Below, piece by piece: positions 4,654 to 61,174 of a stretch of 64,000 bases of DNA; the stretch's first letter is position 1, and each line of letters starts with the position of its first letter. Position numbers and translations under genes: made by a program. The notes beneath the pieces are model-generated. The model was not told the DNA's origin. It ran no database searches and saw only the letters and a program-made list of their open reading frames with translations. Origin of the DNA: a candidate division WOR-3 bacterium (lineage in GTDB: Bacteria > Hydrothermota > Tepidihabitantia > Tepidihabitantales > JBDRVQ01); the NCBI GenBank assembly GCA_039801905.1, contig JBDRVQ010000003.1, positions 203 to 64,202 of the forward strand, written 5' to 3'.

Positions 4654-5701
4654 GTAAGGTAAAGATCTATCGGGCAAATTATCAAGACCTCCAAGAATTG
4701 ATCCCTGTTATCTTTCGCGATTTCCCCTTTAATTTTAAGAATAAGAAGGTCTTCTTAAAACCGAATATGCTCTCCGCCCGGAAACCTGAGGAAGGGGTAA
4801 CCACTCATCCCGAATTGGTGAGAGTCGTTGCTGAATATATTTTGGAGCAAGGAGGCGAATTGCTGGTGGGCGATAACCCAAGCCTTACGAGCGAAGGAAG
4901 CCAAAAGGAAGCCGGAGAAAAGACCGGATTGGCGAAGGCGAGTCTCGGTCATTTCTTAGATATCAGTCGCCATCCCCAGAAGGTAAGGGTTAAGGAATTG
5001 GGCGATTTGGCGGTCTCTTCCGAAATCCTCAATTGTGACATTTTAATCTCTTTACCCAAATTTAAAACCCATCCCTTGACCCTTTTAACCGGAGCGGTGA
5101 AGAATATGTACGGCATCTTAGTGGGTGAGGAGAAACCGCACCTTCACTATCAATTCCCCAACCCCACCGCCTTTTCCCAGATCCTCACTTTAATCTATGA
5201 GATAAGAAGACCAGATTTAATCATTCTGGATGGAATTGTGGCGATGGAGGGTTTCGGACCTTCTAATGGTGATCTCCGTTCCCTAAATCGGATAATTGTC
5301 AGCGGGATGGCTACGCCTGTGACTGGGTACTCGCCCGAATGGTAAAAAGAGACCCTGCCCGGATAAATTTTCTCTCCTGGGCGATGCGGAGGGGATTTTT
5401 TAATCCGAAGGCGATAGAAGTAGAGGGTGATTTTACGGAAATTGAGAAATTCCGACTCCCCTTAAAATTGGGAGACAGTCTCCCCTGGCGTTTAATCGTC
5501 AAATTAATCTACCACCCTTTCCGCTACAAAAGAGTGAGTATCATTAAGGAAAAATGTCGGCTCTGTGGAGCCTGCGAGAAGATTTGTCCAAAGGCGGCTT
5601 TAAGAATTGAGGGGAGAAAATTAAAATACGAAAAGGGAAGTTGTATCGCCTGTTTTTGTTGTCTGGAGGTTTGCCCGGAAGGAGCGATAAAGCCGAGTTA
5701 A
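4650..5701 (+). pseudogene. DUF362-domain protein with C-terminal 2x[4Fe-4S] ferredoxin domain, split by an apparent 1-nt frameshift near 5304-5306
   Basis: Frame 1 reads ...RIIVSGMATPV* and ends at 5345. The other frame is open from 5273 and reads DGYACDWVLARMVKRDPARINFL..., then CRLCGACEKICP and CIACFCCLEVCP. One extra G in the run at 5304-5306 would give the continuous sequence IIVSGDGYACDWVLARMV. Confidence 0.65.
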
Positions 5702-13657: not shown

Positions 13658-15637
13658 TCAATCTTTAAGCCTTAAGCCAAAGAAAATGGTCCGGCCGGGT
13701 CGGGGATAGTCGCGGTCGGAAATCGTATTGCCAAAGGCTTCCGCATAAGTCACATCAAAAAGGTTTTCTGCCTTAAAGGCAAATACTAACCGGCTTATCA
13801 ATCTCCTCTCCAAGCGAAGGCCAAGAGTGAAATAACTCGGTAGCCGCTTCCTTTTCATATAGACCTTAGGAAAACTATCATAAGCGGGGTAGTAATTGAC
13901 CTTATCACCAACAAAATTCCCTTCCAAATGAAGAAGGGTATGGGTATCTCGGAAGAGAAGGGAAGGGGAAAGCTTAAATGAGGGGAGAAATGCCGCCCGT
14001 CGCTTTATTTCGGCAAAGGAATCCCAATAGACCATCTCCTTCCGCAATTGGGTCGCCTTTTTCCAATCGCCAGAAAGAGAGAAGAGAATATTATGGGAAA
14101 TTAGCCATTTCCCTTCCCATTCTAAACCGAAAACTTCCTGCTGGTCAACATTGGTTGGCCGCCAAAAGCCAGCGGTATCGGGAAACCAGGCGATTAAGTC
14201 CTTCGTCTTTCGGTAAAAGAAAGTTAGAGAAACGGGATTAATATCAAAACCTGACTGGAAAGTCCAACCCACCTCCGGTTTTAAGGAGAGATTACCACTT
14301 CTGGGCCAATATAAGTCGTTAAAGGTTGGCGCTCGAAATGCCCGAGCGAGATGAAAACGAAACTTACCGGAGGGAAGCGGGTAGGTGATACCGAAACTGG
14401 GACTAAAAAAGCCACAAAAGACCTTATCCCAGTCGTAACGAAAAGAGGAAAAGAGGGAAGGTTTTTCCCAAAAATTACCTTCCAGAAAGAGACCGACCCT
14501 TTCCCCCTTTGGGTTATACATAGTATCCTTATAGGAGTAAGTTCCTAAATCATAAAAGTAGGAATGGCTCTTAAAATCGTCCCTCTTAAAATCAATACCT
14601 CCGGCAATTTGGAGCGGCATCTCTTCTGGTGCCAGAGTGGAAGTCAGATTTCCGCCGTAGGTCTTTATCCAATAGGTATCTTGATAAATCGCCGTATCCG
14701 TTGAGAACTGGTCAACCCATTGGTAACGAGTGCGATTGGCATTAAAGAAGGGTGAAAATTTGATTTTAAGGTTAGAGGAAGGCGCAAAACTGATCTCACC
14801 ACCAATTCGGTATTGGTTATCCCTTTGCCGGTCATAGATTGAGGAAGCGGTAGAATCGCCATACCTCGGAATTGTCTCCCGTGGTGGCTTCGGCCCACAG
14901 ATTCCCATCTCCTTCTCTTCGTAATTAAAGTTTAATCGGAGGTTTTCTAAGTGAGCGAGAGAGAAACTTCCTCCTAAGGTACTGGCATCTTCATTTGACC
15001 GAACACCTTTGGTCTTCTCCCGGTGGAGAGAGAAAAGGAAGCCGGTTCTATCATCCCCATTGATACCAGAAGTGAAATTAAATAGGTAAGTGTTAAAAGA
15101 TGGACGGAGAGAATTAGAAAAGATATTGCCCCCACTCAACTCCCCCAAGATATTCAATCTCCTGGGTTTTAAGTGATAAGGACTCTTCGTGATAAAATTG
15201 ACCACTCCCCCTAAGGCATTTGCTCCATAAAGACTGGAAGCCCCTCCTTTTAAGATTTCTATCCTCTTTAGATTATCCGTGGGAATTAGCCCCAAGTCAG
15301 GAGTTCCGGTGGCTGGGGAATAGAAGGGGATACCATCAACCAAAACCAATACCTGTTGACTGGTGGAACCAAGGAGAGAAAGGGAAGAGAGACCCTTAAG
15401 GAAGGTATAATTCCGAAAATCAATCCCTTCTATACCGGAGAAGATACCTGACAAATCACCAAATCCCTTTAATCGGATAACCTCTTCGGAAATGATGTTA
15501 ACCGCTACCGGTAACTTCTCAATCTGGCTAGTGACCCGAGAGGCGGTGATGAAGATTGTATCAACCGTGTAGGTTTGAGCGAGTAAAGATAAGGGTATAA
15601 TCTCTAAGATAAAGAATGTGATTTTTTTTGGTAACAT
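13658..15637 (-). CDS. TonB-dependent receptor, BtuB-like (probable cobalamin/corrinoid uptake)
   Basis: Plug-domain motifs (ITASR..., IEILKGGASSLYGANALGGVVNFIT) and a long beta-barrel region. Start chosen at MLPKK, 6 nt after AAGGAGG. A cobalamin riboswitch lies immediately upstream. Confidence 0.85.
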   Translation of the reverse strand: MLPKKITFFILEIIPLSLLAQTYTVDTIFITASRVTSQIEKLPVAVNIISEEVIRLKGFGDLSGIFSGIEGIDFRNYTFLKGLSSLSLLGSTSQQVLVLVDGIPFYSPATGTPDLGLIPTDNLKRIEILKGGASSLYGANALGGVVNFITKSPYHLKPRRLNILGELSGGNIFSNSLRPSFNTYLFNFTSGINGDDRTGFLFSLHREKTKGVRSNEDASTLGGSFSLAHLENLRLNFNYEEKEMGICGPKPPRETIPRYGDSTASSIYDRQRDNQYRIGGEISFAPSSNLKIKFSPFFNANRTRYQWVDQFSTDTAIYQDTYWIKTYGGNLTSTLAPEEMPLQIAGGIDFKRDDFKSHSYFYDLGTYSYKDTMYNPKGERVGLFLEGNFWEKPSLFSSFRYDWDKVFCGFFSPSFGITYPLPSGKFRFHLARAFRAPTFNDLYWPRSGNLSLKPEVGWTFQSGFDINPVSLTFFYRKTKDLIAWFPDTAGFWRPTNVDQQEVFGLEWEGKWLISHNILFSLSGDWKKATQLRKEMVYWDSFAEIKRRAAFLPSFKLSPSLLFRDTHTLLHLEGNFVGDKVNYYPAYDSFPKVYMKRKRLPSYFTLGLRLERRLISRLVFAFKAENLFDVTYAEAFGNTISDRDYPRPGRTIFFGLRLKD

Positions 15638-15672
15638 AATTCCTCCTTTCCTCGCCAAGAGGAATTAAGAAA

Positions 15673-15872
15673 GTGGTAAAGAGGTCTCCTGGCTTGCGGG
15701 TCATCCTACTCTCCCCACCTTCCCATCCCGCAGATATTATGGGCGGGATAGTGGTATTAAGGGGATTTCGTCGCCGCTCACAGTGGGCAGGACCGCGCGG
15801 GATTTCCACCCGCTTCCCTAATCCCGATGGGATATTTATCGGGACTCCCCTTAAAGAGAGGACCTTTACCAC
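15673..15872 (-). promoter_or_regulatory. Cobalamin (B12) riboswitch
   Basis: The minus-strand RNA contains GGGAAGCGGGTGGAAATCCCGCGCGGTCCTGCCCACTGTGAGC and the B12 box AAGCCAGGAGACCTC. The closing helix is GTGGTAAAG (15872-15864) paired with CTTTACCAC (15681-15673). It sits between a promoter and the receptor SD/ATG. Confidence 0.88.
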
Positions 15873-15881
15873 CATCCTTTC

Positions 15882-15909
15882 ATTATAAAAAGTTGGGGGG
15901 GGAAGTCAA
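15882..15909 (-). promoter_or_regulatory. Sigma70-type promoter for the riboswitch-btuB-like transcript
   Basis: Minus strand reads TTGACT (15909-15904), 16-nt spacer, TATAAT (15887-15882), about 10 nt before the riboswitch P1. Confidence 0.7.
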
Positions 15910-16298
15910 GTAAAGTAATTCTCTTGGTTATTTGGAAGAAGATTTTGGCTAAAATAAAAGACTGCCCAAGAGATGCAATGCCCAAAAATACTATCTACCT
16001 CGCCTTAACTAAAGAAAAAGAGAATGACCTAAACGATAAAACAACAAAGATGTGGTTTCTAAAGTCCAATTTTTGGCTTGGTCTTGTGGTGAGGTATTTG
16101 GGGAGATGGCAGTCTGGTGGTTGCGTCTCTTTGGTTTTAGGAAAAAGGTTGTGATTTGGTCAGACGGTGGTTTGAGATTTTGATACTTCTCAACCTGGGG
16201 CTTAGGACCTCTTAAAACCTTTCAGGATCATCTTGACCATGAGCAAATCTTTATTAAGGTTTTTCCCTTTTTGGGTGTTATATTATATGGAGGCAAAT

Positions 16299-16522
16299 AT
16301 GGGAGTGAGAGATGCCTTAAACAGGATTAAGGTTGCTCCCTTTGGCATTATTTTACCGGAGGAGTTATGAGAATAAAGATAAAGAAGAAAGACCCGATTA
16401 AGAGGTTTGGAGATATACCACCAAAGATTTGGCTTTCAATTTCCCAAAGCGACCGAGCAGAAAATAAAGGTCTAATAAAGGAGGTCTTATTGGCAATCAC
16501 GGAGGTCCTCCAAAATAACTAA
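16299..16522 (+). other. Two coupled mini-ORFs (23 aa at 16299-16370; 51 aa at 16367-16522), unverified
   Basis: GGAGG lies 5 nt before the first ATG, and the two ORFs overlap as ATGA. ORF2 contains one array-like unit, ggtctaataaag (G-L-I-K). I recognise no homology. Confidence 0.25.
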
Positions 16523-16567
16523 TCCCAAAAGGGAAAATCCAAAGGAGAGAGGATGAAAGGTAAGAAA

Positions 16568-16812
16568 GGAGGGTTTTATCTTTATAAAAAGTGGGGGGCG
16601 ATATAGGGAGCGGTATCGGGGATCTAATAGGGGGCGTAAGGGAAGGTCTAAGGGAGGGTGTAATCCTGGATTTAATGGAGGGTCTAAGAGAGGGTTTAAT
16701 GGCGGATATAATAGAGGGTGTAATTGGGGGTCTAACCGAGAGTCTAATAGGGGGTGTAATCCCGAGCCGTATCGGGAAGGTAAGGGAGGGTTTAACTGGG
16801 GATATAATTGGG
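16568..16812 (+). repeat. Array A: conserved head (GGAGGG-N8-TTATAAAAAG-GTG...GGTATCGGG) plus 16 tandem 12-nt units, consensus GGTYTAATnnrr
   Basis: Units phased from 16621 to 16812, and 15 of 16 carry TAA at unit positions 5-7. There are no spacers. A GTG-initiated frame (16591-16875) is open, and so is an antisense frame. Confidence 0.85.
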
Positions 16813-16871
16813 AGAGACTTCCCAATAAAAGGTGGGTGCCACCAAAATCAGCACCCGCCAAAGGGTACACC

Positions 16872-17060
16872 ATGAGTATTTTTCTTAAAATCTCTAAAAA
16901 ATCAAGGGTTAAAAGAAACCGCCGAGAGCAAAAGAGAAGACGGAGGCTCCTTCAAAAAAATAGGCTCTGGCTAAAAAGTATCCTTGACGAGGTAGTGAGG
17001 AACGAGCTAAGGGATCAATTGAGGAAACCTCCGTTGGTGAGTTCCGAGGCATTCAGTTAA
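16872..17060 (+). CDS. Hypothetical highly basic small protein (62 aa)
   Basis: ATG ORF between the two convergent arrays (MSIFLKISKKSRVKRNRREQKRRRR...). Weak SD and no recognisable family. Confidence 0.2.
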   Translation: MSIFLKISKKSRVKRNRREQKRRRRLLQKNRLWLKSILDEVVRNELRDQLRKPPLVSSEAFS

Positions 17061-17143
17061 TGCTTAAAAGGAAACCTCGGTGGCGGATAGATTATCCGGA
17101 GTTAGTGGTGGAGGTATGAGAGGGGTGAGTGCTGTCTCTGTTT

Positions 17144-17424
17144 GGCTATAATCTTTCTAATTAACCCCTTATTTATTATTCCAATTAGTCTCTCAATTAG
17201 ACCTTCGTTTATTATCCCAATTAGAGCCCTTATTAGACCTCCGGTTAGATTCCTAATTACCCAGCCAATTATTATCTCTATCAGTCCTTATATTATAGTT
17301 CCAATTAGAAGTTCTATTATTCCCTTAATTAAACTTTCTATTAGGCCTCTTATTAAACCTATATTTAGACCCCCGATACCATCCCCTGTATGCTACACCC
17401 CTTTTTATAAAAATAAATCCCTCC
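17144..17424 (-). repeat. Array B: same head as arrays A and C plus 19 tandem 12-nt units on the minus strand
   Basis: Units phased from 17371 to 17144: 17 have TAA, one TGA and one TTA at unit positions 5-7. The head differs from array C by 1 nt over 36 nt. The G-L-I-x frame has TAG as codon 2 (17395-17393) and TAA at 17290-17288. Confidence 0.85.
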
Positions 17425-17469
17425 CTTTCTTTTGGAAACCAACCCTTATCCGCTTTTTAGTTTACTCTA

Positions 17470-17498
17470 ATTATAAACTAATACTTAAAATTTGTCAA
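17470..17498 (-). promoter_or_regulatory. Consensus sigma70 promoter driving array B
   Basis: Minus strand reads TTGACA (17498-17493), 17-nt spacer, TATAAT (17475-17470). It lies 45 nt upstream of the GGAGGG of the head. Confidence 0.7.
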
Positions 17499-17548
17499 CC
17501 TATCTCATAATGATAATCTTCCTTACCGCCTTAATTTTTTCTCCATCT

Positions 17549-17878
17549 CTAACTTCGGAGGATTCTCATAACGCCTTCCCCTTCGCCTGTGTGGAAGGGA
17601 GGAGAGTTGGTATACCCTAAGGGAGCTACCGAAGGGTTGTTTGTGGTGAAACTGCAAATTACAACAGCAGTATCCGAATAGCCGCCGACAACCGGGCAAT
17701 AATAATGGTTCCATCCTGATGTTTCAGTTGGACGGGCAAAACCAAGGTTTGTGTGGGGAGAGCGAAAGGTTACCGAATAGGAAGAATCCCGAACTGGATT
17801 ACCTATATTATCGGTCAGTTTGCCTTGATAGTTTAAGAGGAGGGGAATAGAGATAAGGAAATCTATATTATTTGTCAA
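17549..17878 (-). pseudogene. Probable gene fragment of a secreted repeat protein (LNYQGKLTDNIGNPV... motif)
   Basis: The ORF has no ATG; the TTG at its start is part of a TTGACA hexamer. It has no signal peptide and no sorting tail. Confidence 0.25.
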
Positions 17879-29084: not shown

Positions 29085-30029
29085 TTAAGGGCTTAGTAAG
29101 CCTTTGGCTTGGAAACTGAAATAATCGGTTTCGTTGCGACCGATGATGATATGGTCTAAGATCCTAATTCCCACCAAACTTAACGCTTTATTTAACTCTT
29201 TGGTAATGGCTATATCTTCGGAGGAAGGATCAGGTTCCCCAGAAGGGTGGTTGTGGACCAAAATGACCGAAGATGCTTGCTTCTGGACCGCCTCTTTTAA
29301 AACCTCTACCTTGTCAACGATACTGGCATCCCGACTCCCCCTTGATAACTCCTGACAATCAAGGACTTTATTTCGGTTGTCTAATAATACGAGGTAGAAA
29401 TACTCCTTTGGCGCATCTCTCAAATAAGGTCCGAGGAAGTTTTTAACAAACTTAATCGCGCCTCGGACATCTCTAATCTTCTCTTGGGCAAGTGCTTCTT
29501 CTCGGAAGAGCCTCTTCCCCAGTTCTAAGGCGGCTTTAATCTGCGTTGCCTTGGCGAAACCGATTCCGGGAATTTTTTGGAGTTCAGAAAGGGGGGCGTT
29601 ATCAATTCCCCTTAGGGAATGGAAGCGGTTGAGGAGTTCTCGGGCTAAATCTTCTGCGGAGCGCCCCTCACTCCCGGTTCTTAGAATAATCGCCAAAAGT
29701 TTTCCTAAGGAGAGTTTTTCCGCCCCTTCTTTTAAGAGTAACTCCCTAGGTCTTTCCTCCTTCACCCACTCCTTTATCGGTTTATGAGAGTTATCGCTTT
29801 TAAGTACCTCTTTAATCTTCCTTTGCCAAAGGAGGCACTCCTCTTTCGTTTGCAAGCCCAACTTCTCAATGATCTCCTCTTTCATCTTTTCCGGCAGTTT
29901 CCCTTTCCGGAAGATGACCTTTCCCGCCCGATAGATGGGATAAAGCCTCCTCGCAGTTAAAAAAGAGAAGACCTCTTGTTGGTCGCGAAAGAACATTAGG
30001 AAATATAAATCACTTTTTTTGTAAGTCAA
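29085..30029 (-). CDS. radC: RadC-family JAB/MPN protein with an N-terminal extension of about 85 aa
   Basis: ERPRELLLKEGAEKLS, a HhH region, and the HNHPSGEPDPSSEDI JAMM motif. The listed TTG start is part of a TTGACT hexamer; ATG at 29996 is an alternative start. Confidence 0.8.
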   Translation of the reverse strand: MTYKKSDLYFLMFFRDQQEVFSFLTARRLYPIYRAGKVIFRKGKLPEKMKEEIIEKLGLQTKEECLLWQRKIKEVLKSDNSHKPIKEWVKEERPRELLLKEGAEKLSLGKLLAIILRTGSEGRSAEDLARELLNRFHSLRGIDNAPLSELQKIPGIGFAKATQIKAALELGKRLFREEALAQEKIRDVRGAIKFVKNFLGPYLRDAPKEYFYLVLLDNRNKVLDCQELSRGSRDASIVDKVEVLKEAVQKQASSVILVHNHPSGEPDPSSEDIAITKELNKALSLVGIRILDHIIIGRNETDYFSFQAKGLLSP

Positions 30030-30101: not shown

Positions 30102-30358
30102 TTAAGTTAAGCCGAGATTTAGACTTCCGGTTAGACTATCAATTGGGTTTTCGGTTAAACTTATAATTAAACCTCTAATTAGATTTCCAATTATCCTTCT
30201 TATTACCCCTACTTTTATTCTTTCTTTTAGACCCTTAATTAGAATGTCAATTAAGCCCAAGTTTAGACCAGGGATTAAACCATCATTTAGGGCTTTTATT
30301 AGGCTCCCGATACCATCCCCTGTATGCTTCACCCCTTTTTATAATGGTAAAGCCCTCC
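30102..30358 (-). repeat. Array C: conserved head plus 17 tandem 12-nt units on the minus strand
   Basis: Units phased from 30305 to 30102; 16 of 17 carry TAA at unit positions 5-7 and one carries CAA. The head is GGAGGG (30358-30353)-N8-TTATAAAAAG-GGGTGAAGCATACAGGGGATGGTATCGGG. The GTG frame 30332-30102 is open (76 aa). Confidence 0.85.
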
Positions 30359-30720
30359 TGTTTGATAAAGATTTTATGATTTAATGCCCTTTTTATTTAA
30401 GTACTACTTACCTGATAACACCTCCTCAATTTCTCTTCAAGGGTTGGGATTAGAACCCAATTTCTTACGGAACCCTTCTTCTCTATGACATCAAAAAAGG
30501 CAAAACCATTAATAATTAGTTTCTCCATAGTCCTCTATAATAAATAACGGAAATACCCCCCAATTTCTGACACCAAATTTTCCCCTTTTTTATAAGTCTT
30601 TGACTCTTCGCAACATATCTTTGCCAAAAGAATACCTCACCGGCCCTTTCCATTTTCCACATAATATCTCCGGGGACAAAGAAAATTGACTTTTTCTAAA
30701 TTTTAAGGATAATCCTTTCT

Positions 30721-60436: not shown

Positions 60437-60913
60437 TTTTCCTCCACCTTTTATTTTAACCAATTCTTTTTTTCTGTCAAGAAAAAGGATGAAAGGAAAT
60501 TTATACCTCATCCTTACTTAAAAATCATCTGGGAATAATGGCATGTCTCAATAATTAAAAAGCAAATTCCGGTGGAGAGTTATTTTGATAAACCCAAAGA
60601 GAACCTAATAGGCTCTTGGGAAAAGTGGGCATTGGAAAATGGTTCGGTCTTATGTTGGTTATCGGCGGTATGATACCGAAGAGGAGTATGAAATTTGAGA
60701 CCCTCTTTTAAGGATTATTTCCCTCTATGTACGGTAAGATTCTATTTTGAGGAAAGAGGTTCAAATGCTTTTAGTGTGAGTAATTTAAGAATAAAAATTT
60801 GCCCAGACTAATCTCTCCTTAACCAAAAAGTTGAATGTCATTAAACTTTTTTAACGGCGGTCTTTTCTTATAAGTCCTTGATTTATAATAACTTATTTGA
60901 TTTGGGCTTGAAA

Positions 60914-61174
60914 ATGGGGGGCAGTATAGGGGATGGTATCGGAGGTTTAATAAAAGGTCTAACTTTTAGCCTAATTGAAGGTTTAATTTTAAGTCTAATC
61001 TTCGCTCTAATTAATGGTTTAATGGTAAGCCTAATCTCGGGTCTAATTAAGTGTTAAATGGAAAGCCTAATTAAAAGTCTAAAGGAAATTCTAATTTAGG
61101 GTATAGTTAGGGGTTTAATCTCTGGTCTAATTGAGGGAATAATAAAGGGTCTAAAAGAAGGAGTAATTGTCTAG
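60914..61174 (+). repeat. Array D: ATG-GGGGGC...GGTATCGGA head plus 19 tandem 12-nt units
   Basis: Units phased from 60944 to 61171: 17 of 19 carry TAA at unit positions 5-7, one carries TAG and one is shifted by 1 nt. The G-L-I-x frame hits TAA at 61055-61057 and TAG at 61097-61099, yet the periodicity continues to 61171. Confidence 0.85.

Follow-up and report, generated by a model that had tools for sequence, protein, structure and literature searches.

Several well-described systems provide a basis for comparison with the repeat arrays reported here. In plasmid R1, the partition site parC consists of ten 11-bp repeats, which are bound by a small dimeric protein, ParR. RNAs of the CsrB/RsmZ type present repeated GGA motifs in hairpin loops, and ToxI of the type III toxin-antitoxin systems is made up of 36-nt repeats (in this class, 2-6 repeats of 34-45 nt that are almost identical precede a terminator and the gene for an endoribonuclease toxin). 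CRISPR loci combine direct repeats of about 23-50 nt with unique spacers of similar length. The capsid proteins of the filamentous viruses SIRV2 and AFV1 act as dimers, each of which covers 12 bp of A-DNA (PMC5517147). The adnaviral capsid fold to which these proteins belong has been described as unique to archaeal filamentous viruses, with no known bacterial link (PMC10848233).

In the window (i.e., the whole 64-kb stretch that was analysed, from a hot-spring member of candidate phylum WOR-3), a phase scan found runs of TAA at 12-nt spacing in four places only. Each of these four arrays, A to D, consists of 16-19 strictly phased 12-nt units standing back-to-back and without spacers, and nothing like them was described in the sources and libraries that we searched:

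16621-16812, plus strand: array A, 16 phased units of 12 nt, 15 of which have TAA at positions 5-7 of the unit
17371-17156, minus strand: array B, 18 phased units, with TAA in 17 of 18
30305-30078, minus strand: array C, 19 phased units, with TAA in 18 of 19
60944-61171, plus strand: array D, 19 phased units, with TAA in 17 of 19

Summed over the four arrays, 67 of the 72 units carry TAA, close to the 65 of 71 counted in the original prediction. The latter had described array A within the 16568-17498 layout exactly as found here (16 plus-strand units at 16621-16812) and had placed about 330 bp between the facing arrays A and B (331 bp as measured). For array B it had given 19 units reaching to 17144; 18 of these stand, up to 17156, while the nineteenth has TTA in place of TAA. 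The convergence of A and B, presented as a feature, turned out to be incidental: the orthologue of array A in another WOR-3 genome (L001) has no neighbouring B, and since the pairing is not conserved we attach no meaning to it.

The proposed 12-nt period was recovered by the phase scan, by a scan of trimer periods and by Tandem Repeats Finder. When periods of 9-15 were compared, in-phase runs of any trimer occurred at period 12 only and at arrays A-D only, with none anywhere in the window at periods 9-11 or 13-15. Tandem Repeats Finder called arrays of period 12, 24 or 36 at A, B and D. The pattern of an array head (see below) followed by four phased TAA had 4 matches in the window vs 0 in 100 shuffles, and no phase slips were found over the 190-250 nt of the arrays. 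The unit consensus is RGTCTAATnrrr; in a set of 233 units, T, A and A at positions 5-7 were conserved at 95, 94 and 98%, respectively, and positions outside TAA held 0.06-0.6 bits. The sense strand of the arrays is purine-rich and C-poor (A 37%, G 23%, C 12%). Units within an array are hardly more alike (0.37-0.42) than random units of other arrays (0.36), which indicates that the arrays are old. That about 92-95% of units in such old arrays still keep the 12-nt phase and have TAA at positions 5-7 requires ongoing selection.

The common head that had been noted before arrays A and B was found there and also before C. It measures about 55 nt (GGAGGG-N8-TTATAAAAAG...GGTATCGGG) and is whole in A, B and C, while D keeps only its last 30 nt, with other sequence upstream. 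The heads and the elements close to arrays A and B are as follows:

16568-16620, plus strand: head of array A, with GGAGGG at 16568-16573, TTATAAAAAG at 16582-16591, GTG at 16591-16593 and GGTATCGGG at 16612-16620
17372-17424, minus strand: head of array B, in which 'codons' 1-2 read GTG-TAG; 92% identical to the head of locus L198, an intact cassette (see below)
30306-30358, minus strand: head of array C, with GGAGGG at 30358-30353 and GGTATCGGG at 30314-30306
60864-60943, plus strand: upstream region and head of array D, with ATG at 60914 and GGTATCGGA at 60935-60943
17498-17470, minus strand: sigma-70-type promoter TTGACA-N17-TATAAT, directed into the head and array B
16831-16859, plus strand: conserved hairpin GGTGGGTGC-N11-GCACCCGCC, between array A and a basic ORF
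16872-17060, plus strand: small, very basic ORF of 62 aa (MSIFLKISKKSRVKRNRREQKRRRR...)

The head is conserved over 15 copies and nearly identical across paralogues and species, and G-tracts cluster in it. Heads of the D type were also found at L015 and L025, and upstream of D, 60864-60898 repeats in inverted orientation the sequence that precedes gene1, a gene of the cassette described below. The promoter predicted before array B matches the consensus at 12 of 12 positions, and four further copies (L007, L013, L014 and L021) have a promoter and spacing identical to those of B. The hairpin is terminator-like when read on the minus strand, and the same element follows the arrays of L200 and L202. 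The basic ORF had no family match; it has a copy of 84% identity after the L200 array and accompanies some arrays, and whether it is part of the array system is uncertain. A cobalamin riboswitch near the arrays belongs to a TonB-receptor gene.

A search of related MAGs, as had been proposed, yielded diverged array copies in no fewer than eight further WOR-3 MAGs that had been assembled independently, so that an assembly artefact can be ruled out. The orthologue of array A in L001 is about 92% identical and has no substitutions in TAA, and array B has homologues in L013 and L007, the indels between them being exactly 12 nt long. At least nine arrays were present in one related MAG, and array copies were found at contig ends, as is typical of dispersed repeats. 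Scanning genome contigs for the head plus four phased TAA gave 27 loci, of which 8 were real, all in one WOR-3 MAG; the corresponding scan of JGI metagenomes gave 48 loci, none of them real. Across the 596 Gb of genomes and the JGI metagenomes scanned, true arrays were restricted to WOR-3. This narrow distribution is common to the arrays and to gene2, the second gene of the cassette, whose homologues formed 6 clusters among 5.8 billion proteins, all from WOR-3. Searches of phage records with gene1 and gene2 (tblastn) returned nothing meaningful.

The arrays form part of a larger cassette, which also contains two small-protein genes that are paralogues of each other. Its order is gene1 (122 aa), gene2 (111 aa), head and array, with the array (16-21 units) as the 3' part; the two genes share a 4-nt overlap, and their paralogy is recognisable by hhalign (E=7.7e-4). 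Both genes and the array are intact at L198, L205, L206, L207, L208 and L209, and at L210 both genes are intact and the contig ends within the head. The intact loci lie in two genomic contexts, and the context of the cassette varies among genomes; in four of them the intact cassette adjoins the gene for the nucleoid protein HU. The called flanking genes are cellular (HU, an IF-2B-like protein, a cation-efflux protein, glycosyltransferases and an M48 peptidase), and no other viral genes, terminal inverted repeats or transposase were seen in the neighbourhood. Most arrays have no intact gene1 or gene2 beside them. Alignment to the intact cassette shows window copies A and C to be deletion derivatives of it:

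16233-16522, plus strand: internally deleted remnants of gene1 (ORF 16233-16370) and gene2 (ORF 16367-16522), upstream of array A
30359-30630, minus strand: cassette remnant upstream of array C, with gene1 and gene2 deleted

Upstream of A, positions 16311-16367 match the gene1 C-terminus (tblastn and blastn against the intact cassette L198), and 16341-16389 match the gene1/gene2 junction (L198 2535-2583) at 86% identity; the remnant ORFs have MxxRDALxRI...FGIxLPEE and MRIxIKKK...IKExL in common with the intact genes. At C, the region upstream of gene1 and the 5' leader are fused to the last gene2 codons. Specifically, blastn matched 30630-30532 to L198 2057-2154, 30461-30441 to L198 2158-2178 and 30434-30110 to L198 2866-3202.

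Profile and structure comparisons weakly but repeatedly support a distant kinship of gene2 with the major capsid proteins of the realm Adnaviria, i.e., of filamentous archaeal viruses, each single match being below conventional significance. In Pfam, gene2 matched Sulf_coat_C (E=0.0044) and MCP_C (E=0.0055), both below the gathering thresholds; Sulf_coat_C was matched by five of six members of the gene2 family and MCP_C by three of six (E=0.003-0.08, all scores under gathering). A PDB-wide profile search had AFV1 ORF132 as its sole match (E=0.069 and 0.16). In hhalign comparisons, ORF132 ranked first among 40 AFV1 proteins (probability 73%, E=3e-5), scoring 33 vs 18.5 for the runner-up, and the SIRV2 capsid protein ranked second among 52 SIRV2 proteins, with the same region aligned. 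An AlphaFold2 model of a gene2-type protein was all-helical and of low confidence (pLDDT 60); its best Foldseek match in the PDB was AFV1 ORF140 (TM 0.50, E=1.4), with Foldseek E-values above 1 throughout and no significant matches in BFVD. When used alone, gene1 matched no capsid proteins. The paralogues gene1 and gene2 stand in tandem, as do the two capsid genes ORF140 and ORF132 of AFV1, whose products, like those of related enveloped filamentous viruses, form a heterodimer; the products of gene1 and gene2 are predicted to form a dimer as well. A viral genome context (a linear genome with other adnaviral genes) was not found around the cassette, and 12-bp phased arrays are absent from the AFV1 genome. 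The arrays repeat at exactly 12, the published number of bp per capsid dimer (PMC5517147). Taken together, the capsid likeness and this footprint offer both a specific candidate for the binding protein and an explanation of why the period should be 12.

Our preferred reading, to which we give slightly less than an even chance, is that the arrays are phased binding tracks for the gene1/gene2 protein pair. The two products would be small alpha-helical paralogues, and one gene1/gene2 heterodimer would bind one 12-bp unit. Binding would be nucleated by the conserved head, and 16-21 dimers would then polymerise in register, covering 200-250 bp as a short nucleoprotein filament. TAA, which contains a flexible TA step, would recur once per dimer, and the same helix face would therefore be presented to each of them. 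The many 'solo' arrays of a genome would be served in trans by one or two intact gene pairs, and such action must be assumed because most arrays lack adjacent intact genes. The binding itself, the 12-bp register of the protein, the nature of the ligand (DNA or RNA) and the cellular role are inferred. Viral capsid proteins bind DNA without sequence specificity, which is a point against the model. The more specific proposal that chromosomal capsid relatives of WOR-3 assemble in 12-bp register on phased arrays, forming A-form-like segments, is a tentative prediction that we consider rather doubtful.

The promoter or operon position of the arrays and their strand bias are no less compatible with an RNA product than with a DNA site. 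Under this alternative, which we regard as unlikely, a highly expressed, largely unstructured and purine-rich array transcript of about 300 nt would serve as a multivalent scaffold or sponge with 16-21 UAA (RGUCUAAU) sites for an RNA-binding protein, which could be the gene1/gene2 products; in a variant, the transcript could pair with its template as an A-form RNA:DNA hybrid (R-loop). A promoter or operon precedes arrays in at least two types of arrangement: a perfect promoter points into B and the four copies that share it, and the cassette array is in operon position after gene2. The strong strand asymmetry and the G-tract cluster in the head also favour a transcript. However, the five promoter-type copies share ancestry and therefore count as one event, C and D lack a recognisable promoter, and neither a terminator nor a defined 3' end was found. 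The predicted folds of A and B were no more stable than those of shuffled sequences (z = -0.5 and +0.4), as expected of a single-stranded binding platform, while an alignment of 15 heads (-2.8 kcal/mol) had no conserved structure or compensatory pairs, and this missing covariation speaks against the RNA reading. In Rfam 15, the arrays had no match at the gathering threshold (whole window) or at E<=1 (16200-17700), which counts against the RNA and bears out the original statement that they belong to no described RNA family. If its homology is real, the only candidate binder comes from a duplex-DNA-binding family.

A further reading is that the arrays are present or recent genes for small tetrad-repeat peptides, many of whose members are pseudogenes; we consider it quite improbable. 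The peptides would have the form (G/S/N/D)-(L/V/I)-(I/T/x)-x over about 50-95 aa, would be hydrophobic or amphipathic and would turn over rapidly. Frame 0 is indeed open in A (16591-16875), in C (30332-30102 on the minus strand, with the ORF stopping inside the array) and in L015, L025, L198, L200, L202, L203 and L208. Gene callers annotate ORFs over arrays, and GLxx tetrad-repeat proteins are known elsewhere (e.g., P0005). Purines occupy all four first-codon positions, and the few head substitutions in GGG-GAT-GGT-ATC-GGG fall at third positions; both patterns look coding-like and count against our preferred reading. Unit position 9, which is the least constrained, falls at the third position of a codon, and D-type copies begin with ATG.

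Against this stands the observation that frame-0 stops are as frequent as the motif alone predicts, with 14 seen vs 16.0±3.0 expected in arrays found by DNA pattern, and 15 vs 19.7±3.3 (P=0.10) once arrays known from ORF calls are added. All three stop codons occur in frame, so a change of genetic code cannot rescue it. In agreement with the original description, the frame open in A and C is broken in B (TAG as codon 2, TAA in unit 7); it is also broken in D (TAA and TAG). Among GTG-type heads, 8 of 14 have TAG at codon 2, intact cassettes included, and the periodicity continues unchanged beyond the stops: in L205 and L207, where the gene pair is intact, an array with TAG and an internal TAA has its phased TAA in 17 of 17 units. 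Broken frames occur in the copies with the best promoters. Codon usage is equally at odds with a protein: 'codon 2' is NTA in 92% of units vs 25% of Leu/Val/Ile codons in the long ORFs of the window, and its third position is A in 94%, even though rare codons result (CTA makes up 7% of Leu codons in those ORFs), while 'codon 3' has only its first base, A, in common and would give I/T/R/N/K/M/S. GGAGGG precedes the GTG by about 18 nt, and no Shine-Dalgarno sequence stands at a working distance; the ATG of D-type copies has none at all. Neither frame-0 nor antisense ORFs matched Pfam or NCBIfam. Word-based protein searches matched only near-identical WOR-3 calls, and an exhaustive profile search added five more array-derived ORF calls, the other inspected matches being unrelated low-complexity tetrad-repeat proteins.

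Stop count, third positions and start-codon spacing all speak against a protein-coding tetrad-repeat gene: the arrays are without selection for an ORF, and we read them as non-coding. Conservation was originally proposed to act at the nucleotide level (TAA every 12 nt) and not at the protein level, and the stop rate, the NTA bias and the TAG at codon 2 support that view. Among the three hypotheses then offered, a decaying peptide family is the least supported, and a DNA iteron array and a multi-site protein-binding RNA are both possible. Antisense coding was also discarded; one frame had 9 stops vs 16.5 expected (P=0.015, uncorrected over six frames), and it crosses the promoter of B and has no other support.

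That the arrays are functionless relics of a selfish or once mobile cassette, like the solo copies left by a decayed element, is very improbable. Many copies with differing upstream junctions and deleted genes, copies at contig ends and a cassette context that differs between genomes would suit such relics, yet TAA and phase are kept in old arrays, the heads are nearly identical across paralogues and species, and neither terminal inverted repeats nor a transposase were seen.

If the link between the phased binding tracks and capsid proteins holds, gene1 and gene2 would represent the first cellular and the first bacterial counterpart of the adnaviral capsid fold, whether as a domesticated capsid or as a survivor related to the cellular ancestor of the capsid, and the arrays would be a natural 'positioning sequence' for such a filament. 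This would bear on the origin of the Adnaviria capsid and would point to a new bacterial way of packaging or marking defined chromosomal segments. Should the link fail, the arrays would still form a new class of element, with phased, spacer-less 12-nt units, one invariant trinucleotide and many copies per genome maintained by selection. They also pose an annotation issue, as gene callers label them hypothetical proteins on either strand.

Compared with known systems, the arrays are not CRISPRs, as had been stated from the outset: their 12-nt units abut and have no spacers, and with no Rfam match a known non-coding RNA or riboswitch-like leader was likewise rejected. They resemble ToxI in being a spacer-less tandem repeat of RNA type beside protein genes, and A, B and D show a super-period of 36 nt. 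However, their units are degenerate and of 12 nt, the 36-nt signal is missing in most arrays, the genes lie upstream instead of downstream, and PADLOC and Pfam toxin families were not matched; a ToxI-like 36-nt super-repeat was rejected, being confined to A, B and D, with a lag-3 unit identity of 0.40 vs a baseline of 0.36. If the arrays act as RNA, they share with the sponge RNAs CsrB/RsmZ and CrcZ the many short, regular and degenerate motif copies, but they have no conserved GGA or CA motif, no hairpins and no Rfam match, and nothing in those RNAs corresponds to the strict 12-nt phase. A CsrB/RsmZ-type sponge was discarded on a position weight matrix lacking conserved GGA and on folding energies equal to those of shuffled sequences.

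Closer in logic are parC/ParR and iterons, in which short direct repeats likewise stand head-to-tail beside the gene of the presumed binder; the cooperative coating of parC by ParR into a higher-order nucleoprotein structure is the logic proposed for the arrays. The arrays differ from parC in their period (12, not about one B-DNA turn), in units that are highly degenerate but for TAA, and in having 16-21 units each and many dispersed copies per chromosome. A plasmid partition centromere was rejected: the cassette has no partition NTPase/ATPase, and gene1 and gene2 matched neither ribbon-helix-helix proteins nor any other known DNA-binding family. The comparison with Adnaviria nucleocapsids also has two sides. 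The host of the arrays is bacterial, the locus is chromosomal and has no other viral genes nearby, and the arrays are short (200-250 bp) with a phased sequence motif, whereas the viral proteins cover an entire genome irrespective of its sequence; the homology of gene2 falls short of standard thresholds. On the other side, both the nucleocapsid (a homodimer in SIRV2, an ORF140/ORF132 heterodimer in AFV1) and the cassette involve small proteins that are alpha-helical (by prediction in the cassette), two tandem paralogues in the case of AFV1 and gene1/gene2, with a weakly similar C-terminal helical core and a common motif, [IV]xxxLxxxGIx7YxxFGxK. The 12 bp covered by each viral dimer equal the period of the arrays, whose own DNA form and filament are predictions.

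We located the arrays with a phase scan of the 64-kb window for TAA at 12-nt spacing, which returned four, referred to as A to D:

16621-16812, plus strand: array A, TAA in 15 of 16 units
17371-17156, minus strand: array B, TAA in 17 of 18 units
30305-30078, minus strand: array C, TAA in 18 of 19 units
60944-61171, plus strand: array D, TAA in 17 of 19 units

Chance does not explain this phasing: a pattern combining the head (the conserved sequence before the array) with four phased TAA matched the window four times and 100 shuffles never, and in-phase runs of any trimer occurred at period 12 only, confined to A-D (periods 9-11 and 13-15, also scanned in the window, gave none). The original prediction had described 16568-17498 as two 12-nt-periodic arrays sharing a head, the second behind a TTGACA-N17-TATAAT promoter. 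Reading 16300-17800 bore out this description, the scan, shuffles and trimer runs recovered the period, the promoter preceding B matches the consensus at 12 of 12 positions, and the head (GGAGGG-N8-TTATAAAAAG-GGGTG-N-AGCATACAGGGGATGGTATCGGG) is common to A, B and also C. D carries only the final 30 nt of this head, and its upstream sequence differs from that of A-C.

Across 233 units from 13 arrays the unit consensus was RGTCTAATnrrr, with T5, A6 and A7 conserved at 95%, 94% and 98% and the remaining positions holding 0.06-0.6 bits; the array sense strand is rich in purines and low in C (A 37%, G 23%, T 28%, C 12%). Two units of one array resemble each other little more (0.37-0.42) than units picked at random from other arrays (0.36), which marks the arrays as old, with the motif and its phase alone preserved. 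Homologous arrays differ by indels of exactly 12 nt. A 36-nt (three-unit) super-period outscored the 12-nt period at 16637-16723, 17172-17247 and 60943-61096 (A, B and D); it was seen neither in C nor in most arrays of a related MAG, and probably reflects local three-unit duplications.

At six loci in other WOR-3 MAGs (L198 and L205-L209) a pair of overlapping genes stands before the array: gene1 (122 aa, MKDALRRIEKY...FGITLPEEI) and gene2 (111 aa, MRIEIKKKK...EIKEALSEK), followed by a spacer of about 35-130 nt, the head and 17-19 units, together referred to as the cassette. At L210 both genes are intact; the 1,087-bp contig stops within the head, and no array is visible on it. The whole cassette occupies at least two different genomic settings; four genomes (L198, L206, L208 and L209) have it intact directly upstream of a gene for the nucleoid protein HU (Bac_DNA_binding), and a functional tie to nucleoid proteins is possible. 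At L198, an ORF called over the array overlaps the HU start. Within the window, ORFs 16233-16370 and 16367-16522, upstream of A, are what internal deletions have left of gene1 and gene2. C retains the sequence upstream of gene1 and the final gene2 codons and has lost all that lay between them, and D adjoins the gene1 upstream region in an inverted copy. B-type copies still have a piece of the spacer (…gcggataag…; compare that of L208) behind the consensus promoter. The inverted copy before D-type arrays (60864-60898 against L198 2067-2101) is 91% identical over 35 nt, and in L198 this region instead drives an ORF of 50 aa in the divergent direction; the element may be reusing a bidirectional promoter module.

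Two other features accompany a subset of arrays:

16831-16859, plus strand: conserved hairpin with a 9-bp stem, GGYGGGTGC-N11-GCACCCGCC
16872-17060, plus strand: very basic ORF of 62-75 aa, KRNRREQKRRRR, after the hairpin and a Shine-Dalgarno sequence

Both recur at L200 (3330-3554) and in L202 after its array. Read on the other strand, the hairpin has the form of an intrinsic terminator; the ORF had no family match and may be either an additional component that binds nucleic acid or an unrelated passenger. Elsewhere in the window, a cobalamin riboswitch (Rfam RF00174, 102.8 bits; 15662-15884, minus strand) lies directly upstream of a 666-aa ORF (13658-15658, minus strand) whose counterpart at the near-identical locus L002 has the Plug domain found in TonB-dependent receptors; the gene is an ordinary one for B12-regulated uptake, with no relation to the arrays. 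Downstream of C, the gene at 29085-30029 (minus strand) carries an HNHPSG motif, which is typical of RadC-like JAB-domain proteins; a promoter-like site of its own lies at 30029-30002, making it unlikely that the gene is transcribed through array C.

Protein-level relatives of the ORF over A in frame 0 (the candidate reading frame along the arrays) were few and annotated as candidate division WOR-3 MAGs. Scanning one genome per species (596 Gb) for the head and four TAA gave 27 loci, of which 8 were real arrays, every one in the WOR-3 MAG JBDRVU01; the remaining loci held just the four TAA that the pattern requires. The same pattern found no real array in JGI metagenomes, and a profile run exhaustively against 1.8 billion representative proteins added five gene calls overlying arrays, on contigs of other WOR-3 MAGs. 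Diverged copies in at least eight other assemblies show that the element is real and not the assembly artefact for which the original prediction had allowed. Across genome, metagenome and protein searches it was limited to a narrow clade within WOR-3. JBDRVU01 has at least nine copies and the window four; these numbers are probably underestimates, because several arrays (L007, L015 and L025) lie at contig ends. Among 5.8 billion proteins, homologues of gene2 form only six clusters, all WOR-3, and genes and arrays thus have the same narrow distribution.

By their alignment (hhalign E=7.7e-4; 79 columns, 30% identical) gene1 and gene2 are paralogues. Below the gathering score, gene2 matched Pfam Sulf_coat_C (E=0.0044; 5 of 6 family members match) and MCP_C (‘filamentous archaeal viruses coat protein’; E=0.0055, 3 of 6 members). 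A profile search of all PDB sequences returned solely ORF132 of the filamentous archaeal virus AFV1 (3fbl, E=0.069; 5w7g, E=0.16). By hhalign, ORF132 ranked first of 40 AFV1 proteins (probability 73%, E=3e-5, score 33.3 vs. 18.5 for the runner-up), and among 52 proteins of SIRV2, another such virus, capsid protein ORF134 ranked second over the same segment; the core shared by gene2 and the capsid proteins is [IV]xxxLxxxGIx7YxxFGxK. The AlphaFold2 model of gene2 is all-helical and of low confidence (pLDDT 60), its best PDB match being AFV1 coat protein ORF140 (TM 0.50, E=1.4); in BFVD, rudivirus and lipothrixvirus coat proteins appeared for gene2 only among non-significant matches. Gene1 by itself had no match reaching capsid proteins. 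We consider homology of gene2 to the capsid proteins of filamentous archaeal viruses probable.

In SIRV2 and AFV1 each capsid dimer covers 12 bp of A-form DNA, so the DNA repeats every 12 bp in the frame of the protein helix, which has 14.7 or 9.3 dimers per turn (PMC5517147). A motif spaced by 12 bp would show the same helix face to each dimer, in our inference the same logic as that of nucleosome rotational positioning sequences, and an array of 16-21 units would accommodate 16-21 dimers, or about one to two turns of a viral helix. The TA step in DNA is flexible, a property that may matter in the invariant TAA. Our best reading, held tentatively, is that gene1/gene2 heterodimers nucleate at the head and then polymerise in register along the array, with intact gene pairs acting in trans for many solo arrays (those lacking adjacent intact genes). 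Binding of the array by gene1/gene2 is itself a proposal, with duplex DNA, RNA or an RNA:DNA hybrid as candidate ligand.

The main rival, an RNA or co-transcriptional component of array action, seems to us unlikely, if worth weighing; in its favour, B-type copies have a consensus promoter, the array occupies an operon position within the cassette, its sense strand is rich in purines and the head contains G-tracts. The arrays are not a structured or known RNA. Rfam gave no match over them at gathering or E<=1 thresholds, in keeping with the earlier statement that no described RNA family has this architecture; array transcripts folded no better than shuffled sequence (z = -0.5 and +0.4), and the head had no supported structure and no compensatory pairs.

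A second, minor rival is a peptide origin of the arrays, or their occasional translation. The only plausible frame, GGT-CTA-Axx-xxx, contains 14 stops against 16.0±3.0 expected from the motif (shuffling within each unit column; the motif itself bars stops in two of four codons), or 15 against 19.7±3.3 (P=0.10) after inclusion of arrays found via ORF calls, which are biased to open frames. TGA, TAG and TAA all occur, so an altered genetic code cannot restore the frame and was ruled out, and the 12-nt periodicity continues unaltered past the stops. ‘Codon 2’ is NTA in 92% of units, vs. 25% of Leu/Val/Ile codons in the window's long ORFs, where CTA makes up 7% of Leu codons; ‘codon 3’ has its first base alone in common (residues I/T/R/N/K/M/S). 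GTG-TAG starts 8 of 14 GTG-type heads, intact cassettes included; GGAGGG lies about 18 nt from GTG, and D-type copies lack a Shine-Dalgarno sequence. Copies with a perfect promoter (B, L007, L013, L014 and L021) have all either lost the start or contain internal stops. That the array works without translation is most clearly indicated by L205 and L207, where both genes are intact and encode the same protein sequences in each genome: codon 2 of the array behind them is TAG and unit 8 contains TAA, yet phased TAA is present in 17 of 17 units. The stop counts, NTA excess, codon-2 TAG and 12-nt indels show that what is maintained is the nucleotides and their 12-nt register, as originally proposed. 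The decaying tetrad-repeat peptide offered alongside fares worse, and is kept as a minor rival because the unit has purines at all four first-codon positions, its least constrained position (9) is a third-codon position, and the few substitutions in GGG-GAT-GGT-ATC-GGG are at third positions.

Three observations touch on reading frames. The G run after GTG in head A (16591-16599) has 6 G and that of the orthologue L001 (about 4893-4903) 7 G, which shifts the frame at its very start and could reflect either noise in the assembly or a tract prone to slippage. One antisense frame (frame 1) has 9 stops vs. 16.5±3.3 expected from the motif (P=0.015, uncorrected for six frames); for example, ORF 17142-17510 (plus strand) across B has (I/L)-x-P-x repeats and extends through the B promoter. 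P0004 and P0005, unrelated proteins from the profile search, have long GLxx or GGLxGGL tetrad repeats (e.g., about 35 GLxx units in a 432-aa protein); such repeats exist as real proteins and can give spurious profile matches.

The coat genes of AFV1 are arranged like gene1 and gene2, in tandem and overlapping. A purely viral interpretation is disfavoured by the chromosomal, syntenic context of the cassette and by AFV1 itself, in which we looked for phased arrays and found none. Membership tests ruled out a CRISPR array (as originally predicted), a ToxI-type antitoxin, a Csr/Rsm sponge and a par centromere; our literature search found no description of such phased arrays. Reviews call the adnaviral capsid protein unique and its realm unconnected to bacteria (PMC10848233). 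If the capsid homology holds, head-nucleated polymerisation of gene1/gene2 along the array would represent a cellular version of the adnaviral nucleocapsid, phased by sequence.
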